NCBI GenBank assembly: GCA_943356415.1 | Contig: CALREW010000001.1 | Coordinates: 223,900-287,899 of the forward strand | Length of the DNA: 64,000 nucleotides | Reading direction: 5' to 3' | Source of the DNA: Candidatus Nomurabacteria bacterium | GTDB taxonomy: Bacteria; Patescibacteriota; Minisyncoccia; Phycocordibacterales; SBAW01 | In this document: positions 32,248 to 62,769 of the stretch, piece after piece | How the letters are laid out: each line of letters begins with the position of its first letter | Numbering within the stretch: the first letter of the stretch is position 1 | Translations under genes and position numbers: made by a program | The notes under the pieces: model-generated | Seen by the model: the letters and a program-made list of their open reading frames with translations, nothing else | What the model was told of the DNA's origin: nothing | The model's database searches: none

Positions 32248-32646
32248 ATGCGACATATCACATTTCGACTAAAGGGCGGACAGCTTCTAAAAGAAGAAAT
32301 TGAGCTACAAGCGAAGAATATTCCTGCAGGAGTCTTGCTTTCTGTCGTCGGCGCCCTTGAGAACGTGAATCTGCGTATGGCAGGTGCAACGCCTGACCGA
32401 CAAGATATTCGAAATCTTGAAGGTCCTTTTGAAATCGTCTCGGGTATCGGAACAGTTTCAAGTAGTGGATGCCACCTCCACCTTTCTGTTTCTGACAAAG
32501 AAGGAAGGGTACTGGGAGGCCACCTCAAGGAGGGTTGTCGTGTTGGGGTAACGGTGGAGGTGGTTATAGGTGTACTTGAAGGCACGACTTACAGACGAAC
32601 CCTGGACGAAGACACAGGGTTTAAAGAGTTAGAAACCCAAACATGA
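32248..32646 (+). CDS. PPC (DUF296) domain protein
   Basis: GPFEIVSGIGTVS..G.HLHLSVSD.EGRVLGGHL core. Stop overlaps the next start (ATGA). Confidence 0.55.
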   Translation: MRHITFRLKGGQLLKEEIELQAKNIPAGVLLSVVGALENVNLRMAGATPDRQDIRNLEGPFEIVSGIGTVSSSGCHLHLSVSDKEGRVLGGHLKEGCRVGVTVEVVIGVLEGTTYRRTLDEDTGFKELETQT

Positions 32647-33125
32647 CCCAGCACGACAGTGAGACGCCGGCAGAAGGTAAGCAGGTTATAACTGCGTGCG
32701 CGTTTATTCATCACAACTTTGATGGCGTAGAGAAAGTTTTTCTACCCAAGCGTGCTGCGACGAAGAAGTTTCTGCCGAATGTGTTTGAGCTACCTGGCGG
32801 ACATATAGACTTCGGTGAAGATATTGTAGAAGGATTGAAGCGCGAAGTGATGGAGGAACACGGTATGAATATCTCCGTGGGAGACCCGTTTGCGGTTTTT
32901 ACGTATCTAAACAAAGTAAAAGGCTCGCACTCCGTTGAGGCAGTGTATTTTGCCTCCTTCACCGACCCGCTCGAAAATATCCGCCTAAACCCAGAAGACC
33001 ATTCAGAGTACCGTTGGGCAGCTGAAGAAGAAATTGAGGCTTTAACGGAACTAAGCGGCGAAGAGCGAGACAATACCTACAAGGGCTTTGCTCTCCTTCG
33101 CGGCGAACCTCATATATTTGGGTGA
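32643..33125 (+). CDS. Nudix hydrolase
   Basis: Nudix box GGHIDFGEDIVEGLKREVMEEHG. Confidence 0.7.
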   Translation: MTQHDSETPAEGKQVITACAFIHHNFDGVEKVFLPKRAATKKFLPNVFELPGGHIDFGEDIVEGLKREVMEEHGMNISVGDPFAVFTYLNKVKGSHSVEAVYFASFTDPLENIRLNPEDHSEYRWAAEEEIEALTELSGEERDNTYKGFALLRGEPHIFG

Positions 33126-33128
33126 TGT

Positions 33129-33656
33129 ATGAATAAGGAAGACCGACAAAATCTCACCGCCCTCATTGAGGCAAACGGAGGTGCCGATTGGTGGGACCCG
33201 CAGGAGTTTCAGGCTTCTGTTCGCGCAAAACTCCCCACACAGCTCCAGATACTTTCTGTTCCTCCGTCTCCTGCATCAAACTACAATTGTTTCGTATACG
33301 CCCTCGGCCTCGAAGGTCGTAAGGCATTCCTTGGAGGCAATAACCCAGTCCAAAAGGAATTTATTCAACATCTCCTAAATAAAGGTGTACTCGGGCTAGT
33401 TGAAAAGCCTACAGAAGGTGATCTTATTTTTTATAAAGATGAAGGTGGCACAATAACCCACGGCGGGATTGTAAGCGCCGGCGGAAAAATATCTTCAAAA
33501 TGGATGTGGGGCGCACTCTTCTCCCACGAAACCTGGGATGTTCCTTCTTCTTTCGGAGATATTGTTTTCTATACAAACAGACCTCTACCTGAAGTGCTAG
33601 AAAAAGAATACGAGGATTACAAAAACAGTGGAGCCATCATTAATCCAATTCAATAA
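33129..33656 (+). CDS. papain-fold Cys/His hydrolase-like protein (NlpC/P60 or CHAP-type), tentative
   Basis: Y-N-C-F-V-Y-A-L-G, then GDLIFY...ITHGGIV, follows the Cys...His order of NlpC/P60. Family not certain. Confidence 0.35.
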   Translation: MNKEDRQNLTALIEANGGADWWDPQEFQASVRAKLPTQLQILSVPPSPASNYNCFVYALGLEGRKAFLGGNNPVQKEFIQHLLNKGVLGLVEKPTEGDLIFYKDEGGTITHGGIVSAGGKISSKWMWGALFSHETWDVPSSFGDIVFYTNRPLPEVLEKEYEDYKNSGAIINPIQ

Positions 33657-34099
33657 TGGCTGAACATTTTAAAATTATGCCAGCGGTGTTCTTAGTTCTT
33701 ATCAAGGACGGTACCGTTCTACTTGCTCGGCGAGCCAATACTGGCCATCAAGATGGAAACTACGGCCTCCCTGCTGGGCACCTCGAGCAAGGAGAGTCAG
33801 TGCGTGAAGGCATTGTTCGTGAAGCGCGGGAGGAGGTAGCCGTTATTCTCGAGACTGAGGATATGAGCGTCGTACACGTCATGCAGCGCAACAAAGATGT
33901 TCCAGGTAAGGAATACGTAGACTTCTATCTCACTGCCAATCACTGGGCCGGTGAACCTAAAAATAACGAGCCCGAAAAGTGCGACGACGTCGCTTGGTTT
34001 CCACTCGACAACTTGCCTCCAAACACTATTCCCTACGTGCGCCAAGCCATAGACTGCATCCGCCGCAATCAACACTTCTCCGAATTCAACTTCAACTAA
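33656..34099 (+). CDS. Nudix hydrolase
   Basis: Nudix box GHLEQGESVREGIVREAREEVAV. Start overlaps the previous stop (TAATGG). Confidence 0.7.
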   Translation: MAEHFKIMPAVFLVLIKDGTVLLARRANTGHQDGNYGLPAGHLEQGESVREGIVREAREEVAVILETEDMSVVHVMQRNKDVPGKEYVDFYLTANHWAGEPKNNEPEKCDDVAWFPLDNLPPNTIPYVRQAIDCIRRNQHFSEFNFN

Positions 34100-43750: not shown

Positions 43751-50605
<6,855 letters not shown>

Positions 50606-51881: not shown

Positions 51882-52502
51882 CTATTCTTTCCAGAAAATA
51901 TCACGGCGTACTAGATCGTTTGAAATCACCTCAACAAAACGCTTCATAACTGGGTACTGCGCGACCGGCTTAAATTTGTTTGAAACGTTCATTTCGTACG
52001 TAATCTTCAAACGCTTAAGGGACTTCTCATTGACCGGATCGAGTAATTCAAAAAGCGGTTCCATCTTATCGATGGCGTATGCAAAATGACTCTCGGGAGT
52101 TTTTTGTTCCTCGTATTCAATCCAGTAGTCGTAGCCGATTTTTTGTAGCGGAGGCGGCAACGCTGCAAATACTTCATTTGCCGCAGCCTGCTCTCGCTCT
52201 ACATCCTCATTTGTCTTATGGTACGTAACAATATCTCCGTGCTTTATCTCGCCAAAGTCATGAAAGAGAAGGATGCTTTTAACCTTTTGTGCATCAAGCG
52301 AAGGGCCAATCGGCTCTACTTCCAAAAAGTAGTGCGCCAAAAATGTAATGGCGAAGACATGTTCCGCGACTGATTCAGCGTGGAGATTTTTATCACGCGC
52401 CGTTCCATACCGAATCGTTTTCTTCAACGCATAGGCACTTACTAATTGATGTGCAATGGTGAGGATTTCTTCGTCTGTGCAGGTCAGTGGCGATGTGTCC
52501 AT
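51882..52502 (-). CDS. HD-domain phosphohydrolase (YfbR-like 5'-deoxynucleotidase)
   Basis: ESVAEH...LLFHDFGEIKHGD...DKMEP motifs. Confidence 0.65.
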   Translation of the reverse strand: MDTSPLTCTDEEILTIAHQLVSAYALKKTIRYGTARDKNLHAESVAEHVFAITFLAHYFLEVEPIGPSLDAQKVKSILLFHDFGEIKHGDIVTYHKTNEDVEREQAAANEVFAALPPPLQKIGYDYWIEYEEQKTPESHFAYAIDKMEPLFELLDPVNEKSLKRLKITYEMNVSNKFKPVAQYPVMKRFVEVISNDLVRRDIFWKE

Positions 52503-52506
52503 AGAG

Positions 52507-52932
52507 TTATCGTAATTCCTCGCGCAATTTCATCCAAAGTTTCCCCATTTCATTGCGACCCAAACCGTCGAGACCATCGCCCCAAAAACGGTCGGCCTGG
52601 TGCTTTACGATTGTCTGCTCTCCCGACGCCACGAGCGCCTCGTGCACATCGGCATGCTGCTCGAGCTTTGCACGGAATAGCTCTTCCATTACCTCAAGCT
52701 TGCGGTCATCCCAATCGAGGATCTGCATCTGCTTATGCTGCTGCGATACCTCCCATGCAAGGTAAGCACTGCGGGCTGCAAGCACTTCTTCGATAATGGC
52801 CGGATCCTCGTACCGCTGCGCGTGGTACGCGTGCTCAACCGTCGGATAGACATATCCTTGAAATTCGAGCATGTGGCCAGAAAACGGCGCAAAATATTTC
52901 TCGAAAGTCTCAAATGGCAATATATCCCTCAT
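52507..52932 (-). CDS. NADAR (YbiA/DUF1768) domain protein
   Basis: F.PFSGH...F.GYVYPTVEHAYHAQ...ADRFWGDGLDG.G.N.MGKLWM. The upstream ORF extension to 53214 runs through G+C-rich DNA and is unlikely to be coding. Confidence 0.6.
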   Translation of the reverse strand: MRDILPFETFEKYFAPFSGHMLEFQGYVYPTVEHAYHAQRYEDPAIIEEVLAARSAYLAWEVSQQHKQMQILDWDDRKLEVMEELFRAKLEQHADVHEALVASGEQTIVKHQADRFWGDGLDGLGRNEMGKLWMKLREELR

Positions 52933-53028
52933 TGCACCATTACAGTGCCATACTTTGCACCACCTCGACAGGTGCGTTACGGTGACTGAGATTGCACACC
53001 ACAGAGGACCTTGGCTGGAGGTTAATCC

Positions 53029-53208
53029 ATGTTCATTCGACATCTCGCTATCGCGCTCGTTGCGTGCACTGTTTGCACCGGCTGCGACACGGTGGCCAAG
53101 CTTGTCACCGCACTTGCCGACAGCGAGACCAGGCCGCCGGCCTGGGACAAGCCAACCGGCAGCTATCATCCAGACAGGCTCAGAAAGGGCTACACGCCCC
53201 CGAAGTAG
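53029..53208 (+). CDS. 59-aa putative lipoprotein, not in the supplied ORF track
   Basis: GGAGG 8 nt upstream of the ATG; translation MFIRHLAIALVACTVCTGCDT...; followed by a hairpin plus T-tract. G+C-rich. Confidence 0.35.
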   Translation: MFIRHLAIALVACTVCTGCDTVAKLVTALADSETRPPAWDKPTGSYHPDRLRKGYTPPK

Positions 53209-53280
53209 AGCCACTCGATCGAGACGAAAAACGCCCCACGGGTTTCCCGGGGGCGTCTTTCCATTTTGACGAAAGAAAAT

Positions 53281-53652
53281 TTAAAGCTCGAGCTCGGCCA
53301 TGGCCTCGTCCACAGTCTTCATGGTGTGCGTTTGTGGTTCGCTGCGATACGTCGTCGGGGCTCCTGCTTCAGCAGTGTCAGAAGTTCGTGATGGACCCTT
53401 TCCACCTTCAGGTTCGTTTATTTTGAGATTAACGCGGGCGTTGTGCTTCATACCAACAACGCGAAGGAGCGTACGGATAGCCTTTGCCGTATTGCCCTGG
53501 CGACCGATAACCTTACCCATGTCGTCTGGGTGAATGTCGAGTGTGAGGAGTACCCCCATCTCATCAACCACACGGTGTATCTTTACGCTCTCAGGCTGAT
53601 CAACAAGACCCTTTATCACAAACTCCAAAAACTCCTGATCCTTCTCAGTCAT
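53281..53652 (-). CDS. KH-domain RNA-binding protein (YlqC-like)
   Basis: VIGRQGNTAKAIRTLL is a GXXG KH motif, and the gene sits between rpsP and trmD as in many bacteria. Confidence 0.65.
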   Translation of the reverse strand: MTEKDQEFLEFVIKGLVDQPESVKIHRVVDEMGVLLTLDIHPDDMGKVIGRQGNTAKAIRTLLRVVGMKHNARVNLKINEPEGGKGPSRTSDTAEAGAPTTYRSEPQTHTMKTVDEAMAELEL

Positions 53653-53720
53653 TGCAGTATCTTACGGATATATAAAGGCACTCAGTAAATTGTAGCAGAA
53701 CTCGCCCAAGAAAAGCCGGG

Positions 53721-54137
53721 TTATTCAGCTGCAGCTTCAGTCGCAGCGGGGGCTTCCGGAGCAGCTTCGGCTACGACAGGCTCAGCAGCTACCTCAGCCA
53801 CCGGCGCCTCTTCAGAAACCACGGGGGCTGCTGGTGCAGTTTCAGCAACCACTTCAGGTTTAGCAACTGTCTTCTTAGGAAGGACGTTACGCTTTTTGCC
53901 CTCAACAATGCCCTTTGAAACAAGGAGGTTGTGGACCGTATCTGAAACCTGAGCACCCTGGCTCATCCAGTGCTTGATGCGTTCGGCTTCAAGTTCAACA
54001 CGATCGGTGCGTGCATCATAGGAACCAACCATCTCGAGGTATTTGCCGGTCTTTGGGCCCTTTTTGCTATCCAATACAAGCACGCGGAACGAGGGGTCGT
54101 TCTTGCGGCCACGGCGCTGTAGACGAATCGTTAACAT
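53721..54137 (-). CDS. rpsP: 30S ribosomal protein S16 with Ala/Pro/Glu-rich C-terminal tail
   Basis: MLTIRLQRRGRKN..FRVLV.DS core; the start at 54137 is preferred over the ORF opening at 54233. Confidence 0.75.
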   Translation of the reverse strand: MLTIRLQRRGRKNDPSFRVLVLDSKKGPKTGKYLEMVGSYDARTDRVELEAERIKHWMSQGAQVSDTVHNLLVSKGIVEGKKRNVLPKKTVAKPEVVAETAPAAPVVSEEAPVAEVAAEPVVAEAAPEAPAATEAAAE

Positions 54138-54184
54138 GGGCGCCATCGTAACAGACATGAGAAGCGGGGTCAAACGAAGAACGG

Positions 54185-54230
54185 CGGCCACAGGGGCCGC
54201 CGTCGCTGGTGCCGGGTCCACCCGGCGGAT
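54185..54230 (-). terminator. orphan tandem-hairpin terminator on the minus strand
   Basis: gccgggtggacccggc, ggcggcccctgtggccgcc, then gttcttcgtttg. It lies immediately upstream of rpsP with no coding ORF feeding into it. Confidence 0.35.
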
Positions 54231-54560
54231 CAAGATCGTAAAGTACGGATACGCGGCGTAAAGGTACCGCTCCGTTGCGTGGCGTTGGTTTGACCAGAGT
54301 GGTCACACCTCAGCATTCGAGTTCAAGCATTCAATCCAACGAGTGGTAGAGAACGGATTGAAACACGGACGCTTCGTCGATGCCGGAGATACACACCTCG
54401 ATATCTTGAGATGTAACCCCTCCGATTCCCCGCGGGCTCTCGCCGCACACATGATTGAGTGACAAACCAGTCGCCCATGTGTGGCACATACGTCTCGAAC
54501 AAAGAAAAATATAAAGCACATCGTCCACAATGCAAGCCCATATGCTATAGTTTTCCACAT

Positions 54561-56564
54561 ATGGCAGGTCATCGCGCTCCCCGCGGGCGCGCTTCAGGTG
54601 CCGGCAACGGCGCGTCGCACACATCTGACAAGAGTGCTCCTCTCCCTCGAAAGAAAGAATTTGAGGGCATTATTGCCGTGAGCGCACGCGGCACTGGCTA
54701 CCTGACGTGGGAGGCAAGTGAGACGCTCGGCGATATCGAAATCCCGAAAGATAAACTCGCTCCGGCACTAAATGGCGACACCGTGCAGGTAAAAACCCTC
54801 ACGGTGGTTCAAGGCCGCATGCAAGGCGAAGTAACTAAGGTTATTGAGCGCGCAAAAGAAGCGTTCGTGGGTAATGTCGCCGAGCGTGACGGCATCCAAG
54901 TATTGGTACCCGATGACAAGCGAGTGTACTTGCCTATCCGTATTGAAACTGACAAAAAAATAATCCCAGGGACTAAAGTGTTGGTGCACCTTTCTGGGTG
55001 GGACGAAAAAGGACCAGTGGGATACATCGAAGAAGTCATCGGGCGCGCAGGAGAACACCGTGTCGAAATGAACGCAATTGTTCTTGAACACGGTTTTCGT
55101 ACTGACTTCCCTGCCGAAGTCGCGCGCGAAGCGCGCGAAATAGAAGAGAATCACACCCAAAGCATCGCTACAGAAGCGCCAAATCGCCTCGACTTCCGCG
55201 ACACCACCACCTTCACCATCGACCCAGTTGATGCCAAAGACTTTGACGACGCACTTTCAATCAAAGAACTGCCTGATGGTCTGTATGAAATAGGTATCCA
55301 TATCGCCGACGTAACCTTCTTTGTACGTCCCGGCATGGCGCTTGAAAACGAGGCGCGCAAACGCGCAACAAGTATCTATCTTGTTGATGCGACCATCCCC
55401 ATGCTTCCACATGAGCTTTCAGGAAACGTATGTTCATTGCGCGAAGCAGAAGACCGCCTCACCTATGCCGCCATTTTCATAGTAGATAAAGAAGGACGCG
55501 TAAAAGAACGCACCTTTGCTCGCACCATCATCAACTCAAACAAACGCTTCACCTACGAAGAGGCGCAAGGCGTACTCGATGCAAAGAAGGGTCCGTATCT
55601 GCACGAGCTCACGACGCTGCGCGATATTGCTCGCAAACTGAACGCACAGCGCAAACGTGAAGGCGCGATCGAGTTTGACCAAGACGAAGTAAAATTTGTC
55701 CTCGATGACCGAGGTGTTCCTATCAAAGTGGTACGCAAGGTGCGCATTGAGACCAACAGCCTTATCGAGGAGTTTATGTTGCTCGCAAACCGTGAAGTAG
55801 CCGCCTACGTCAGCAAACTTGCAGAGAAAGTGCCCGAGCAAAAAATGGCGTTTATTTACCGCATCCACGATATTCCAAAAGAAGATCGCATTGAAGAACT
55901 CTCGACGTACCTGCGCGCTATTGGCTACGAACTCGAAAAGAAAAAAGGTAAGCGTCTCACGGCTCGCGATATCAACGAACTATTTGCAGAAATAGCTGGC
56001 ACCCCCGAAGAGCAGCTTATCAAGACGGCTACCATCCGCTCTATGGCTAAAGCCATCTATTCGACGCGAAATATCGGACACTTCGGTCTCTCTTTCACGT
56101 ACTACACACACTTCACATCTCCCATCCGCCGCTATCCTGACATGTTGGTACATCGCGCACTCTCCACGCACCTGCACGGCGAGCCAATAGGCCGCGACGA
56201 ATACACGACACTCGAAAAGCTTGCGCTCCACTCTTCAGAACAAGAAGCGAAGGCGGTATCTGCAGAACGCGACTCCATCAAATACAAACAGGTTGAGTAT
56301 CTTGCACCGAAAATTGGTCAAACATTCGATGCGCTTGTTTCAGGCGTTGCCGACTGGGGCGTCTACGTTGAAGAAGCTGAATCAAAAGCCGACGGGCTTA
56401 TCCGTGTGCGCTCGCTTGGTGGTGATTATTTTCAGTACGACAAAAAGAAATACGCAATGGTGGGCTCGCGCACCGGCAAAAAGTTTAGTCTTGGTGACAA
56501 AGTAAAAGTAAAACTAATCGGTGCAGACCTCGCGACACGCCAACTTGAGTTCGCACTAGCTTAA
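54561..56564 (+). CDS. rnr: ribonuclease R
   Basis: Cold-shock/OB N-terminus, RNB catalytic domain (DFDDALS...) and S1 C-terminus. The ATG at 54561 is preferred to the ORF opening at 54459. Confidence 0.8.
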   Translation: MAGHRAPRGRASGAGNGASHTSDKSAPLPRKKEFEGIIAVSARGTGYLTWEASETLGDIEIPKDKLAPALNGDTVQVKTLTVVQGRMQGEVTKVIERAKEAFVGNVAERDGIQVLVPDDKRVYLPIRIETDKKIIPGTKVLVHLSGWDEKGPVGYIEEVIGRAGEHRVEMNAIVLEHGFRTDFPAEVAREAREIEENHTQSIATEAPNRLDFRDTTTFTIDPVDAKDFDDALSIKELPDGLYEIGIHIADVTFFVRPGMALENEARKRATSIYLVDATIPMLPHELSGNVCSLREAEDRLTYAAIFIVDKEGRVKERTFARTIINSNKRFTYEEAQGVLDAKKGPYLHELTTLRDIARKLNAQRKREGAIEFDQDEVKFVLDDRGVPIKVVRKVRIETNSLIEEFMLLANREVAAYVSKLAEKVPEQKMAFIYRIHDIPKEDRIEELSTYLRAIGYELEKKKGKRLTARDINELFAEIAGTPEEQLIKTATIRSMAKAIYSTRNIGHFGLSFTYYTHFTSPIRRYPDMLVHRALSTHLHGEPIGRDEYTTLEKLALHSSEQEAKAVSAERDSIKYKQVEYLAPKIGQTFDALVSGVADWGVYVEEAESKADGLIRVRSLGGDYFQYDKKKYAMVGSRTGKKFSLGDKVKVKLIGADLATRQLEFALA

Positions 56565-57428: not shown

Positions 57429-59681
57429 CTACTTTGCTACCGCCACCGCTTCCTCAAATTTCACCGACAATAATTTGGAGGCGCCCTCTGCACCCATCGT
57501 CACTCCATAAAGCACACTTGCACGAGACATCGTCTCGCGGTTATGAGTTATCACAATAAGTTGCGAGTGCTTCGCCAACGTTTCAATCATGTCACCGTAG
57601 CGGCGGCTGTTTGCCTCGTCGAGCGCAGCATCAGTTTCATCGAGTATCAAAAACGGTGGCGGGTTCACCTGGCTCATCGCGAAGATAAGCGCGATTGAAG
57701 TAAGTGCTCTCTCGCCACCCGAGAGCATGTGGAGGCCTTTGATACGCTTGTGCGGAAGCGAAACGCCAATTTCAATACCCTCTTCAATCTCCTCTTCGGG
57801 TTCTTCCTCCGGGGCATCCTCACCACCTTCTTCGGGTGCGCCTCGACGGCGCTTCGCTTCGCGAACCAAATTGAGGCTTGCCTCTCCACCGCCAAACATC
57901 ACTTTGAAAAACTCACTGAACGCATCGTTTACTTTTACGAGACCGGTATTGAAACGCGTCGTGAGCGTTGCGGTAAGTTCGTCAATAAGGCTACGCAGCG
58001 ATACTTGTGACGCGGCGAGGTCAGAGAGTTCGCGCTCAAGAAATTCATCGCGTTCTTTAGCTTCACGATGCTCTTTGAGTACCTCCTCCGAAGACGCACC
58101 TCCTTCGCTTTCGAGTTTTATTTTCATCTTCTCCAACTTGCGGCGACGCTCTTCCTGTACCGAGCGCTCCTCCGTCATCGCTTCAGCAGAAGACACCGGG
58201 TATTCCCCGTACGTCAAAAGCTCACGACCGATCAAGACAGCGCCTTCTTCTCGCTCCCGTTTAAAATCGTCTTCCTCACGAGAGAGCATCGCCTCCTTCG
58301 AGGAAATCGAGAGGATCGTTTGCTCTACCTCGCTGCGCTCGGTCATAAGGGTGAAGAGTTCTCGTTCAGCCTCACGTGCCCCTGCTTGCGCATCTTCCAT
58401 TTCTTTACGCATCGCTGAAACACGACTGCGTAGTGCCTTTTCTTCCTCTTCAGCCGAAGAGAGTTCTTTCGTAAGTTCGGTTATGCGCACTCTGCGCTCT
58501 TCAGCTTCTTTTGTTACCTGAGGCAATTCACCTGCTTCTTCTGGTTTTACCGACTGAGCAAAGCGCTCTGCGACGGAAAGTGCTTCAGTGACTGCGGCAG
58601 AAAGAAGTTCGAGTGTGCCCTTTTCACGGGCTTCCTTTAACCGACCAACAAGGTCAGAGAGAAACGTGCGCACTGACTTCAATGGCACCGTTGCAGCATC
58701 TTCATCTTGCGCGCGGCGAGAAAGCTCCGAGAGACGGCGAGAGAGAAACGCGTACTCGCCTTCAACGCGCGAAAGATCGCGAAGAAGACCCTCCTTGCGG
58801 TCACCCGCTTTACGCATGTCTGCCTCAAGCGCCATAACGGCAGAACTTCCCTTTGTTGCGGCTCCTGCTGCATCAAGTTCCGCACGTAGCGCAGAGATAC
58901 GATTGTCCATCGCTGCACGTTTAGTCTCTGGCTCGTGGCGCGCTTCTTTCAATTCCTCGCGACTATGGGTGAGATACAGGTCTTCGCGCCTCAAATACTC
59001 GCGGTACCGCTCTGAGAGTTCTGCACGCAAAATATTTACCTCTTCTATTTTCTTTACCTGGCGCTCAAGAAACCGCAGGTGTGGCGCAAGTTCGCGACGC
59101 AGGCTTTCAACCTGGCCCATATTTTCTCCAGTCTTCTGCAGTTTCCGTTCAGCTTCCTCACGCTTATAGAGATAGGCTTTAAGACCGAGCGCGTCCTCGA
59201 GCATTTCTCGGCGCTCGCGGTTAGTGGCAGAGAGAATGCGATCTGCTTCACCTTGGGAAATAATATGGTGTCCAGAAGCACCGATATTTGCCTGGGCCAA
59301 TAATTCTGCAATGTCACGCAAACGCACCGACGTACCATTAAGGAGATAGTCATTGACGCCATCACGATGAACGACACGCTCGATAGACACTTCATCAAAG
59401 TCGATATTGAAAAGACGGTCACCATTGTCAAAAAGTAGTTTTACCGCCGCACGATTGCCGCGAGGCACGAGTTTTGAGCCACCGAAAATAAGATCTTCGC
59501 CGCGCTTACCGCGCATGCTCTTCATTGACTGCTCGCCGAGTACAAAGCGGAAGCTCTCGGCAACGTTTGATTTGCCTGAACCGTTTGGACCCACAATCGA
59601 GGTGATAGTGGTTCCAAAATCGAGCGTTGTCTTTTTGGCGAACGACTTAAAGCCGTTAAGCTCTATGCTCTTGAGGCGCAT
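57429..59681 (-). CDS. smc: SMC-like chromosome partition ATPase (short, 750 aa)
   Basis: N-terminal Walker A (GPNGSGKSN), C-terminal signature LSGGE and Walker B, and a central coiled coil. No recognisable hinge. Confidence 0.7.
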   Translation of the reverse strand: MRLKSIELNGFKSFAKKTTLDFGTTITSIVGPNGSGKSNVAESFRFVLGEQSMKSMRGKRGEDLIFGGSKLVPRGNRAAVKLLFDNGDRLFNIDFDEVSIERVVHRDGVNDYLLNGTSVRLRDIAELLAQANIGASGHHIISQGEADRILSATNRERREMLEDALGLKAYLYKREEAERKLQKTGENMGQVESLRRELAPHLRFLERQVKKIEEVNILRAELSERYREYLRREDLYLTHSREELKEARHEPETKRAAMDNRISALRAELDAAGAATKGSSAVMALEADMRKAGDRKEGLLRDLSRVEGEYAFLSRRLSELSRRAQDEDAATVPLKSVRTFLSDLVGRLKEAREKGTLELLSAAVTEALSVAERFAQSVKPEEAGELPQVTKEAEERRVRITELTKELSSAEEEEKALRSRVSAMRKEMEDAQAGAREAERELFTLMTERSEVEQTILSISSKEAMLSREEDDFKREREEGAVLIGRELLTYGEYPVSSAEAMTEERSVQEERRRKLEKMKIKLESEGGASSEEVLKEHREAKERDEFLERELSDLAASQVSLRSLIDELTATLTTRFNTGLVKVNDAFSEFFKVMFGGGEASLNLVREAKRRRGAPEEGGEDAPEEEPEEEIEEGIEIGVSLPHKRIKGLHMLSGGERALTSIALIFAMSQVNPPPFLILDETDAALDEANSRRYGDMIETLAKHSQLIVITHNRETMSRASVLYGVTMGAEGASKLLSVKFEEAVAVAK

Positions 59682-60432: not shown

Positions 60433-61380
60433 TTAGCGTTTCCGGTTCTTCGGTCGCTCAGTTACTCGAGGCATCTGAGAGGCCATCTCATCACCCACCA
60501 ACTTTCCCACCGCAAGCGTCACAATCGGCAACATGTCGCCGTAGAAGTTGAGATCGAGGCAATCTTTCACCTTAAACCAACGCGCATCATCGAGACCCCC
60601 TTTCTCTTCAAGCGTAATGTCGTCGTAGGGCGCTTCAGCCAAAAAGTATGTGACGTGTTTGCGCTTCTTTCCCACCTCTGGGTCTGACGCAATGTACTCG
60701 TTTTCTCCTATCTTCTCTTTCAACTCAACATCGAGCCCGAGTTCTTCTTTCATCTCGCGAATCGTTCCCTGCTCGATCGTCTCTCCTTCTTCAATCTTTC
60801 CTTTAGAGAGGGTCCAATGTCCGAAGATATCGTGAACGAGGGCCAGATAGACTTCGCCGTTATGGCGCGCGTATACCACTGCGCCACCGAGGTTTAGAAC
60901 GGGCATTTCCTCGTACGGAATTTCCTTTTTCTTTTTCTTGCTGGTCTCGTCTTTCCCAGGCTCGCCAAGTTCTTTGTACACCGCGCCAAGAACGCCGTTT
61001 ACAAACTTACCTGAAGTGTCTCCACCGTAACTTTTTGCCAGCTCTATCGCCTCATTGATGGCGACTTTTGCAGGCACTTGGTTTCGGTCTGAGAAAAGAA
61101 GCTCGTAGAGGCCGAGGCGCAATATATTGCGGTCGACCATAGCGATACGGTCGATAGGCCACTCAGGAGCGGCTTTTTCTATAACGAGATCGAGGTCCGG
61201 CCGGCGCGAAAGAATACCGCGCAGGAGTTCCTGCATAAACGGTACATCGCCTGCTTTAGGCGCGAACTCATTGGCATTGCGAATAAGCGCCTCGAGAGTT
61301 GCTTCCTGCGGCAATTCGCGGAAGTCCCACTCGAAGAGGGTTTGCATTACTACGGACCGTGAGAGGTGCCGATTCGCCAT
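60433..61380 (-). CDS. nusB: NusB-like antitermination domain fused to a Nudix hydrolase domain
   Basis: The N-terminal ~150 aa are NusB-like (R..AR..A.Q.L...). The C-terminal part carries a Nudix box (GKIEEGETIEQGTIREMKEELG). Confidence 0.6.
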   Translation of the reverse strand: MANRHLSRSVVMQTLFEWDFRELPQEATLEALIRNANEFAPKAGDVPFMQELLRGILSRRPDLDLVIEKAAPEWPIDRIAMVDRNILRLGLYELLFSDRNQVPAKVAINEAIELAKSYGGDTSGKFVNGVLGAVYKELGEPGKDETSKKKKKEIPYEEMPVLNLGGAVVYARHNGEVYLALVHDIFGHWTLSKGKIEEGETIEQGTIREMKEELGLDVELKEKIGENEYIASDPEVGKKRKHVTYFLAEAPYDDITLEEKGGLDDARWFKVKDCLDLNFYGDMLPIVTLAVGKLVGDEMASQMPRVTERPKNRKR

Positions 61381-61435
61381 GTCAATCAGTCAAAAGAGCG
61401 TTCAATGAACCTAATAGACCTGAAGGAGAACGGGG

Positions 61436-61660
61436 CTACTTCGCAGATTTCTTCGCTGCGCGCTTGATGGTCTTTGCGGCCTTTTTCGAGGCTGCACCGG
61501 CCATAGACTTACCGCGATACGAACCGCACGAAGGGCATGCACGATGGCGCATCGTTGGCGCTCCGCAGGAAGCACAATTCGCCACCGCAGCGGACACCAA
61601 CGCGTGGTGCGACCGGCGGTTGCGGGTATGAGCCCTGGTGTGGCGCATTCGGACTACCAT
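61436..61660 (-). CDS. rpmF: 50S ribosomal protein L32 (C4 zinc-ribbon form)
   Basis: MRHTRAHTRNRRSHHAL then C..C...C..C and a Lys-rich tail. The ORF opens at 61732 but the conserved start is near 61660. Confidence 0.6.
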   Translation of the reverse strand: MVVRMRHTRAHTRNRRSHHALVSAAVANCASCGAPTMRHRACPSCGSYRGKSMAGAASKKAAKTIKRAAKKSAK

Positions 61661-61805
61661 AAAGGGCACTATAGCCAAACCGTGCTTAAAACGCAACGCC
61701 AGACACCTGTATATGTTGTGAGGAAAAATCAATGCGCCGCCCGGAGGGGTCCGGACGGCGCGTGTAGGGCGGGCTTGGAGTCCGCTCTATATATTGTTGC
61801 CGAGC

Positions 61806-62066
61806 TCAGTGGCTCGGCGCGATGACAGGCGCCTTGACGCGCCGCAGCGCGAGGATATCTGGCGATGCCAGGGCGAAGTTGTCGCAAGTCTTGGGCGGCT
61901 TGTCGACATCAGCCCGTTTCCGGCAGCCAAACTTGCACTGCTTGCCGATGGTGACTTCGACACCATCGCAGCTCCTGCACGGCACATCGGGCGAAAACGC
62001 ACCGATGAAAAATGCAGTTGCCTTTTCGTCGACTGGCCCTGAGCCAGCGATCATACCCGTACTCAT
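61806..62066 (-). CDS. small four-Cys protein (C-x2-C...C-x3-C), DUF1289/YdhL-like? (G+C-rich)
   Basis: GGAGTG SD and ATG; PCRSCDG...CKFGC cysteine pattern. Confidence 0.35.
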   Translation of the reverse strand: MSTGMIAGSGPVDEKATAFFIGAFSPDVPCRSCDGVEVTIGKQCKFGCRKRADVDKPPKTCDNFALASPDILALRRVKAPVIAPSH

Positions 62067-62175
62067 CTCAGTTCACTCCCCAAACGCGATTGACACTTTT
62101 TTACAGCCCGCTTGTATCGCCTCAGCGACCTTCCCGAACTGCAAGCCTTAACTGTAGGCCGACAATTGGCCCTAG

Positions 62176-62769
62176 TCAACCGTGACAAAAACTCCGGCGG
62201 TGGATGTCGCAGAGACCAAATGTCCTCATAGCATCCTTATGTATTTTCGTCCCATACCCTTTGTGTATCTCAAATCCGTACTGCGGATACATAGAGGCAA
62301 ACCTTTTCATCAAACGGTCACGGCGTACTTTTGCCGCAATAGATGCAAGTGCAATCACTGGCTGAGACGCATCTCCACGAATAATGGTCTCCTGCCTTTT
62401 GTAATGGGAAGGTGCACGCAAGCCTCCATCTAGTAGTACGAGTGACTCCTCTGGGTCTGTATCGAGTCGCGACAGCGCACGATTGAGCGCTGACGTAACC
62501 GCCCAAACAATGCCACGACGGTCTATTACTTCGTTTGATGAATACTGGACTGAAAAACGGATGAGGCCACTTTGCTGCCAAGACTTCATGCGTCCGTACC
62601 ACTCCTCGCGCGCAGCTTCATTCAGCTGCTTACTATCACGCACGCCGGAGAGAAGTGTCTGATCAAAATGAGGCATCAAAAGTACCCCCCCTACTGAGAC
62701 AGGGCCGGCCAATGGGCCCCTACCTGCCTCATCAATCCCGATAAGATATGCCGCCACGCCTATAAGCAT
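62176..62769 (-). CDS. rnhB: ribonuclease HII
   Basis: IGIDEAGRGPLAGPV catalytic motif. The start at 62769 is preferred; the ORF opening at 62907 would overlap dnaE. Confidence 0.75.
   Translation of the reverse strand: MLIGVAAYLIGIDEAGRGPLAGPVSVGGVLLMPHFDQTLLSGVRDSKQLNEAAREEWYGRMKSWQQSGLIRFSVQYSSNEVIDRRGIVWAVTSALNRALSRLDTDPEESLVLLDGGLRAPSHYKRQETIIRGDASQPVIALASIAAKVRRDRLMKRFASMYPQYGFEIHKGYGTKIHKDAMRTFGLCDIHRRSFCHG

Follow-up and report, generated by a model that had tools for sequence, protein, structure and literature searches.

A NusB-Nudix fusion protein encoded between rpmF and rnc in Parcubacteria

The fused gene and its distribution

The window examined here is the whole 64-kb stretch that was analysed (64,000 nucleotides (nt), positions 223,900 to 287,899 of contig CALREW010000001.1, assembly GCA_943356415.1, from a Candidatus Nomurabacteria bacterium). 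Its minus strand carries a gene, hereafter nusB-nudix, in which the transcription factor NusB is continuous with a Nudix hydrolase domain. The open reading frame (ORF) runs uninterrupted from an ATG start through 315 amino acids (aa) to a stop codon, with two Pfam domains in one frame, NusB (PF01029; aa 7-136, E=1.2e-34, 120 bits versus a cut-off of 23.1) and NUDIX (PF00293; aa 170-278, E=9e-17, 61.8 bits versus a cut-off of 21.1). Both matches are far beyond chance. The predicted model of the 315-aa protein has a predicted local distance difference test score (pLDDT) of 90.9 and a predicted template modelling score (pTM) of 0.75, and confidence is low only at aa 141-150 and in the C-terminal tail. 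The features of the locus are as follows.

60433..61380, minus strand: the whole nusB-nudix ORF
60967..61380, minus strand: NusB domain, aa 1-138, seven helices (PF01029, TIGR01951, Protein Data Bank (PDB) sequence matches and Foldseek)
60907..60966, minus strand: tether, aa 139-158, GEPGKDETSKKKKKEIPYEE, with a flexible part at about aa 139-152 (about 14 residues)
60493..60906, minus strand: Nudix domain, aa 159-296, predicted to be of the Ap4A-hydrolase (NUDT2-like) type (PF00293, profile search and Foldseek)
60733..60801, minus strand: Nudix box, aa 194-216, GKIEEGETIEQGTIREMKEELGL, read from the sequence and canonical in the window protein
60436..60492, minus strand: C-terminal tail, aa 297-315, variable, basic and probably disordered (pLDDT 48-61), poorly conserved or absent in homologues
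61392..61400, minus strand: BoxA-like core CGCUCUUUU, read from the sequence, with its 3' end 12 nt 5' of the nusB-nudix ATG
61436..61660, minus strand: rpmF (ribosomal protein L32; PF01783, E=8.5e-14), start codon uncertain, ending 55 nt upstream of the nusB-nudix start codon
59732..60427, minus strand: rnc (RNase III; Ribonuclease_3 and dsrm domains), beginning 5 nt past the nusB-nudix stop codon
57429..59681, minus strand: smc, downstream of rnc

The gene rnhB lies further upstream, beyond rpmF, and rnc is tightly packed behind nusB-nudix. A sequence-only reading of this DNA had described a NusB-like domain, a Lys-rich linker and a canonical Nudix box within one ORF next to rnc and smc, and had called the architecture unusual. 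All three parts were found as described, and both neighbours follow downstream on the same strand. The term unusual is also borne out, as the two-domain NusB and Nudix architecture is absent among solved PDB structures searched with Foldseek, and the fusion is not described in the papers found by full-text literature searches.

A search of 5.8 billion proteins returned at least 120 homologue clusters, and all 120 among the matches listed are 297-334 aa long, share 70-96% identity, contain both Pfam domains and keep the same frame across the poly-A-rich linker DNA. They derive from NCBI, JGI, ENA and Logan assemblies, and those that are named are given as “NusB” of Candidatus Adlerbacteria, Paceibacterota or Patescibacteria. 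HMMER searches over 1.84 billion representatives of 50%-identity clusters yielded about 55 more full-length fusions, down to about 30% identity, and in total 215 full-length fusions were assembled. In addition, a scan of one genome per GTDB species provided a set of the 80 best-matching loci, no two of them from the same assembly. The fusion is encoded in 47 of these 80, from Kaiser-, Nomura-, Zambryski-, Niyogi-, Ryan- and Komeilibacteria, “Paceibacterota” and Parcubacteria. All named sources of the fusion belong to the Parcubacteria group, where NCBI also places Adlerbacteria and Komeilibacteria; some labels of metagenome-assembled genomes (Saccharibacteria, Acetobacteraceae, Bdellovibrionales) look unreliable. 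In Parcubacteria the fusion is a genuine gene with wide conservation. Where source annotations exist, they give the proteins just as “NusB”, and the extra domain has therefore been overlooked.

The sequence-only reading had also raised the alternative that a missed stop codon joins two genes, and had suggested a search for the same fusion in related genomes, which the 47 loci and 215 full-length sequences now answer. A missed stop or frameshift could be suspected given that the linker DNA is homopolymer-rich and that two related loci first looked split. Against this, the same continuous frame is found in full-length sequences from the four sources named above, amounting to hundreds of independent assemblies, and both split cases are explained. 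In locus L040 the apparent split is caused by a run of N inside the gene. In locus L043 (L043:5983-6930, CAZWMQ010000003.1, GC content 28.5%) the gene has three in-frame TGA codons, all at the family-invariant positions W74, W189 and W268, and therefore the split is only apparent and this Patescibacteria-like genome appears to read UGA as Trp (code-4-like), not Gly. Code 25 reads UGA as Gly. We thus give an artefact next to no credence, and this claim of the sequence-only reading is refuted.

One further locus departs from the common form. In L042 (L042:1457-2164) a fusion-type NusB is followed, immediately past the linker (…PVKKLGG), by unrelated sequence that is cut off at the end of a 2.2-kb contig. 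Since tblastn still matches query residues 1-210 there, a frameshift or sequencing error is the likely cause.

The NusB domain, its tether and the BoxA-like element

Few bacterial transcription factors are as conserved and as rarely decorated as NusB. The N-terminal half of the fusion belongs to this family by equivalog score, fold, BoxA-contact residues and gene position. It scores 125.9 bits against the nusB equivalog model TIGR01951 of NCBIfam (cut-off 88.35), and its PDB sequence matches are the Thermotoga, Aquifex and E. coli NusB proteins (E=7e-22 to 2e-17). Seven helices are predicted with a pLDDT mostly above 90, and Foldseek places the domain on E. coli NusB 3imq with a template-modelling (TM) score of 0.91 and a root-mean-square deviation (rmsd) of 1.8 Å; M. 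tuberculosis NusB 1eyv was also matched.

In the Aquifex NusB-NusE-BoxA structure, the F122 and E81 residues stack on and hydrogen-bond U8 of BoxA, and an E. coli NusB F122D mutant is defective (PMC3177189). F122 aligns with F126 of the fusion and E81 with D83, which are conserved in 100% and 97% of the fusion family, respectively. At the nusB5 position, Y18 is F16 in the window protein and thus still aromatic, and D118 is T122. The gene rpsJ does not occur in the window. Judged by these alignments and the predicted model, the NusB part keeps both the fold and the BoxA-contact residues. It therefore resembles the stand-alone NusB of E. coli, Aquifex, Thermotoga and M. tuberculosis in family, all-helical fold and BoxA contacts, and differs from them by an extra 175 aa comprising the GEPGKD/K-rich tether and the Nudix domain.

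Gene order supports the same identification. The order rpmF-nusB-rnc occurs in nearly all 80 loci, whether fused or not, with rnhB upstream and smc downstream in most. In 33 of the 80 loci, a stand-alone nusB of 140-180 aa occupies the position between rpmF and rnc, and rnc follows immediately, no Nudix gene being adjacent; the lineages concerned include Yanofsky-, Moran-, Staskawicz-, Azam- and Wildermuthbacteria. As the fusion sits in the same slot, it is the positional orthologue of ordinary nusB, i.e., the housekeeping NusB of its lineage with an added domain, and did not arise by the joining of neighbouring genes. A “Rosetta stone” origin from adjacent genes was rejected on the same grounds, namely that rnc directly follows the stand-alone nusB with no adjoining Nudix gene.

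A different arrangement is known from the 16S rRNA methyltransferase RsmB (Sun), which shares the design of an N-terminal NusB-like RNA-binding domain followed by an enzyme domain acting on rRNA. By this precedent of a NusB-like domain delivering an enzyme to rRNA, the N-terminal domain of the fusion might merely target an RNA-directed Nudix enzyme while the true NusB is encoded elsewhere in the genome, and RsmB models do give weak matches to it. These matches cover the N-terminal domain only and reach 24-61 bits against cut-offs of 269-540, with no methyltransferase domain found, whereas the nusB equivalog model is passed. The enzyme of RsmB is an S-adenosylmethionine-dependent methyltransferase and its NusB-like domain is not the NusB of the cell, while the fusion sits where sister lineages have stand-alone nusB. 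No second NusB occurs within the 64-kb window, and none of the 80 loci share an assembly, which is weak evidence. An RsmB-like arrangement is in our judgement very improbable.

The tether contains the Lys-rich stretch SKKKKKE at aa 147-153, and the block 141-150 averages a pLDDT of 53, compared with 84-98 for most of both domains. The motif LGEPGKDE within it is nearly invariant among close relatives. In the form Y(K/R)E(L/I)GEPGKD followed by a K/E-rich tail, it also terminates many stand-alone Parcubacteria NusBs, and the tether motif is therefore an older feature of the lineage that predates the fusion and onto which the Nudix domain was added. The Lys-rich linker noted in the sequence-only reading is thus present without being specific to the fusion.

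The BoxA-like core of the window is the element GCUCUUUU at 61392..61400. Its core GCUCUUU is shared with the rrn BoxA of E. coli and with the GYTCTTTAANA consensus (PMC5725501). A lone 7-mer is no proof by itself, and its position was therefore tested across loci. The motif G[TC]TCTTT lies at most 60 nt upstream of nusB in 15 of 47 fusion loci, compared with 1.7% of random windows (p~1e-15), and in 3 of 32 stand-alone nusB loci, compared with a background of 1.5%. It is found upstream of nusB in 14 of 46 cases versus 3 of 152 upstream of rpmF, rnc, smc and rnhB in the same loci (Fisher p=9e-8). Among close relatives of the window, locus L085 carries AGUUCUUUUCC and locus L086 carries AGCUCCUUCAACAA. 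Among Nus-factor genes, suhB has been shown to be autoregulated through BoxA, and the same has been proposed for nusE and nusB (PMC5725501); the enrichment of the BoxA-like motif just upstream of nusB suggests autoregulation here. It also supports the idea that the NusB domain still reads BoxA.

No rRNA operon was found in the window or in the fusion loci examined. Genes for 16S rRNA occur only in four loci with stand-alone NusB (L051, L059, L078, L079), a few kb downstream of nusB-rnc. The leader in L078 has a BoxA-like GAGUUCUUUAUAUAA at -129 from the 16S 5' end. Only a single genome with stand-alone NusB showed GUUCUUUAU in an rrn leader.

The Nudix domain and its catalytic residues

The box of the window protein, G194-KIEEG-E200-TIEQGTI-R208-E209-M-K-E212-E213-L-G215-L216, is an exact match to the Nudix pattern GX5EX7REUXEEXGU. 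A profile built from 36 fused Nudix domains was searched against solved structures and matched the Aquifex diadenosine tetraphosphate (Ap4A) hydrolase 3i7u (E=1e-19), Chlamydia CT771 (1.4e-15), the C. elegans enzyme 1kt9 (8e-14), human NUDT2 (1.5e-13) and the Thermus Ap6A hydrolase Ndx1 (2e-13), followed by mycobacterial MutT1/Rv2985 and then Dcp2. The best Foldseek matches agree with the profile, with TM scores of 0.84-0.88 for Ap4A/Ap6A hydrolases (3i7u: TM 0.88, rmsd 2.0 Å), in keeping with the alpha/beta/alpha Nudix fold, and the Nudix domain of NrtR is also among the structural matches.

Ap4A hydrolases bind the P1 phosphate through a His, K42, Y82 and the equivalent of K89 (the last in Plasmodium), and stack the adenine between a loop-5 Tyr and a second Tyr or Phe (PMC4734340, PMC2425470). 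Residues D184, H188, W189, K193 and E209 of the fusion align with D33, H37, W38, K42 and E58 of human NUDT2, and Y229, K241 and Y280 with its Y82, K89 and the Phe of LAQFKE. K193, Y229, K241 and Y280 are conserved in 76-98% of the fusion family, their roles in the pocket being assigned by alignment only. By sequence, fold and these aligned pocket residues, the Nudix half is of the Ap4A-hydrolase (NUDT2-like) type, and its activity is a prediction.

Other identities within the Nudix superfamily were considered and rejected. RppH models reach 17-30 bits against NCBIfam cut-offs of 116-259, and the models for MutT (8-oxo-dGTPase), TIGR00586 and PRK10776, reach 26-33 bits against 97.9 and 148. The high-ranking match MutT1/Rv2985, a diadenosine-polyphosphate and 8-oxo-(d)GTP enzyme, is likewise a two-domain fusion (Nudix and histidine phosphatase), but its fusion partner and domain order differ, and its NCBIfam model scores 39 bits against a cut-off of 475.

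The Ap4A and ApnA hydrolases 3i7u, 1kt9, NUDT2, Ndx1 and CT771, which are the best profile and fold matches and whose Lys/Tyr/Lys site and stacking aromatic residue are conserved in the alignment, are small stand-alone proteins with invariant catalytic glutamates, whereas the fused domain often lacks these. Among the 215 fusions, REx2EE is intact in 97 of the 122 sequences at least 70% identical to the query, in 18 of 43 at 50-70% and in 9 of 50 below 50%. In a non-redundant set of 74 fusions at 65% identity, 20 (27%) have all four glutamates (200, 209, 212 and 213), 19 have three and 35 have at most two. The fraction of this set retaining the residue is 35% for E209, 66% for R208, 66% for E212 and 78% for E213, and the substitutes at position 209 are K (13 members), V (11), I (10) and A (8). 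Replacement also occurs among the closest relatives of the query (121 sequences), where K takes the place of E209 in 14 and G does so in 6.

Members with a degenerate box keep D184 (93%), W189 (94%), T190 (93%) and K193 (96%) as well as Y229 (90%), Y245 (94%), W268 (96%) and Y280 (97%). Their Nudix/NusB divergence ratio is 1.28, compared with 1.27 for canonical members, and the two domains co-diverge (r=0.72). Intact and degenerate boxes are interspersed on a neighbour-joining (NJ) tree, where the nearest relatives of the query include RKEE forms; the losses have therefore been repeated. Nudix glutamates bind the catalytic metal ions (PMC9283932), and CFIm25, without two of them, bound Ap4A with undetected hydrolysis (PMC2425470). 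The simplest reading would be that the putative pocket is selected family-wide and catalysis only in some lineages, including that of the window. With the glutamates dispensable and the putative pocket not, we infer that ligand binding beside NusB is the property under selection.

These patterns bear on whether the two halves have anything to do with each other. The Nudix part could be a house-cleaning pyrophosphohydrolase for Ap4A or nucleoside triphosphates, fused by chance in a streamlined genome and acting on the free nucleotide pool. The fully canonical box of the window protein and the flexible tether agree with this, as does the presence of another gene fusion in the genome, rpoB-rpoC as a single 2284-aa ORF. 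A pure enzyme should, however, keep its catalytic residues, which are complete in only 27% of the non-redundant members; the domain is nevertheless retained, its degenerate forms diverge no faster and keep the putative pocket residues, and it co-diverges with NusB. The window alone also has two separate stand-alone Nudix genes already. We consider independent functions unlikely.

The widespread loss of catalytic residues together with conserved putative pocket residues would also fit a non-catalytic ligand sensor, in which an alarmone-like nucleotide (Ap4A, perhaps (p)ppGpp or ATP) switches NusB and hydrolysis only resets it. Precedents are NrtR, already noted among the structural matches, and CFIm25, the Nudix protein of an RNA-processing complex that binds Ap4A without detectable hydrolysis (PMC2425470), and the pTM of 0.75 hints at a defined arrangement of the two domains. 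In both NrtR and CFIm25, it is a degenerate-box Nudix domain through which a nucleic-acid-binding regulator binds its ligand or RNA; the partner is a winged helix in NrtR and there is none in CFIm25, and the box is intact in the query and degenerate in most of the fusion family. As the query and most of its close relatives have an intact box, hydrolysis is probably selected there, which speaks against pure sensing. A sensor of this kind, which overlaps with the reading that we favour below, seems to us rather unlikely. The fusion resembles RsmB, NrtR or CFIm25 in its working and is a member of none of them.

Degenerate catalytic residues in many members could alternatively mean that the Nudix fold is a protein-docking module, binding for example RNA polymerase, the ribosome or RNase III with no nucleotide ligand. 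There are precedents for protein interactions mediated by non-catalytic Nudix domains (PMC5389931), and rnc is always the next gene. Conservation is, however, highest at residues that match, in the alignment, those binding phosphate and stacking on adenine in Ap4A hydrolases, and not on a new surface, and E213, the main metal-binding glutamate, is kept in 78-86% of members. Docking is thus a doubtful explanation, and we rate it as quite improbable.

Nudix genes also occur outside the fusion. Two stand-alone ones in the window (32625..33122 and 33644..34096, plus strand; 166 and 151 aa) are weakly MutT-like and reach no equivalog cut-off; the genome therefore encodes Nudix enzymes separately from the fusion. 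P0261 (L082:4001-4453, 150 aa) is a true stand-alone relative of the fused domain, 45% identical to it and with a canonical box. It is surrounded by genes for an integrase, a DNA methylase and a Rep_O-like protein, a context resembling that of a mobile or phage-like element. A phage origin of the Nudix domain was tried with tblastn against INPHARED, which gave no match. Another candidate relative, P0228, was rejected as a contig-edge fragment of a fusion. The short Nudix proteins P0202 and P0258 (L083) combine a generic N-terminal half of the W..PGG type with a second half, starting at the Nudix-box helix, that is almost the same as in the fused-domain family; they may be assembly chimeras or recombinants, and P0258 is on a 601-bp contig.

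Possible roles of the fusion and other features of the window

The reading that we favour, without rating it quite at an even chance, is a composite one, in which NusB acts on BoxA while the tethered Nudix domain binds or hydrolyses an adenine-nucleotide polyphosphate or an RNA 5' end. The NusB part would work with S10 on BoxA RNA in the rRNA antitermination complex, and probably also on its own mRNA in autoregulation. The tether would hold the Nudix part no more than a few nanometres from the BoxA-bound nascent RNA and RNA polymerase. There, the Nudix part would bind, and in this genome probably hydrolyse, an adenine-nucleotide polyphosphate. The candidate substrates are of two kinds, namely free dinucleoside polyphosphates, for instance Ap4A, and 5' ends of BoxA-bearing transcripts that carry ppp or an Np4 cap. 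RNA polymerase can use Ap4A-like dinucleotides as cap-forming initiators.

With a complete Mg2+-binding and catalytic box and aligned phosphate and adenine residues, the window protein is expected to be an active pyrophosphohydrolase for adenine-nucleotide polyphosphates, whereas across the family hydrolysis would be kept only in some lineages. The suggestion of the sequence-only reading that the fusion couples antitermination to hydrolysis is therefore plausible in this genome, where the box is intact. Across the family, in which the glutamates are often replaced and the putative ligand-binding residues kept, conservation seems to concern nucleotide or 5'-end binding and not hydrolysis.

Nudix proteins acting on RNA ends provide a parallel. 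RppH, Nudt2 and Dcp2 share the Nudix fold; Nudt2 is an Ap4A hydrolase that also hydrolyses triphosphorylated RNA and caps, removing 5' phosphates, and RppH removes Np4N caps (PMC9283932). In Dcp2 a helical N-terminal domain is followed by the Nudix domain, as in the fusion. Foldseek aligned 259-268 columns with it at an rmsd of 12 Å, and since this superposition is poor, the likeness is in architecture only.

A more specific possibility, to which we give modest weight and which we hold only tentatively, is that the fused Nudix domain is a reader before it is an enzyme: it would bind either an alarmone like Ap4A or the 5' end, polyphosphorylated or capped, of nascent RNA containing BoxA, and this binding would gate the NusB-S10-BoxA complex. 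If so, the fusion would be a nucleotide-sensing elongation factor that ties rRNA synthesis in Parcubacteria, and its own autoregulation, to nucleotide state, with catalysis kept only in some lineages as a reset.

Several observations weigh against the composite reading. Its substrate rests on alignment to Ap4A hydrolases at about 25-28% identity, and the Nudix domain is below every NCBIfam equivalog cut-off. Proteins in which only E209 is replaced (RKEE, RVEE) might still be catalytic. The BoxA-like core occurs in only about 30% of fusion loci and is degraded in the close relative L084, and BoxA is clear in one of three rrn leaders of stand-alone-NusB genomes, those of L051 and L059 being without a clear one. 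No promoter-like site was found between rpmF and nusB-nudix, which places the BoxA-like element inside an rpmF-nusB-rnc transcript. A BoxA near the transcript 5' end, which would have backed the 5'-end idea, was rejected for the same lack of a promoter-like site after rpmF. Lastly, as to a single origin of the fusion, parsimony on an NJ tree of the NusB domain, which is weak given its 141 aa, requires eight changes between fused and stand-alone forms.

An Ap4A-hydrolase-type domain has long been kept on NusB in a radiation of uncultivated, genome-reduced bacteria. The repeated catalytic loss with retention of the putative pocket points to a regulatory or RNA-end-binding role, which would link rRNA antitermination in a new way with the chemistry of RNA 5' ends or with signalling by nucleotides or alarmones. 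The fusion thus offers a testable handle on Ap4A-type molecules in bacteria and on the control of ribosome synthesis in the candidate phyla radiation.

Across the 64-kb window, no tRNA genes (ARAGORN) and no Rfam families at gathering threshold were found. Genes for RNA and nucleotide metabolism cluster near nusB-nudix, with RNase HII and RNase III flanking the fusion. The region 51882..56564 encodes an HD-domain YfbR-like 5'-nucleotidase, a NADAR-domain protein, a KhpA-like KH protein and S16, with RNase R/II (RNB) on the opposite strand.

Between rnhB and rpmF lies a gene-poor gap of about 440 nt (61733..62175). On the minus strand it has a sigma70-like promoter match (62179..62151) and, just before rpmF, a strong terminator-like hairpin (61761..61734) of 12 bp, 10 of them GC, followed by ATTGATTTTT. 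Rfam gave no match on this gap, which could hold a leader, an attenuator or a small unannotated gene.

The smc gene (57429..59681) encodes a product of 750 aa with SMC_N at aa 3-735, and related loci encode about 730-870 aa in complete ORFs. Bacterial SMC is usually well over 1000 aa, and the coiled coil is therefore much shorter than expected. A second fusion of transcription-machinery genes in the window is rpoB-rpoC (43751..50605, minus strand), whose fused RpoB-RpoC product has Rpb2 domains at aa 20-1047 and Rpb1 domains from aa 1065.

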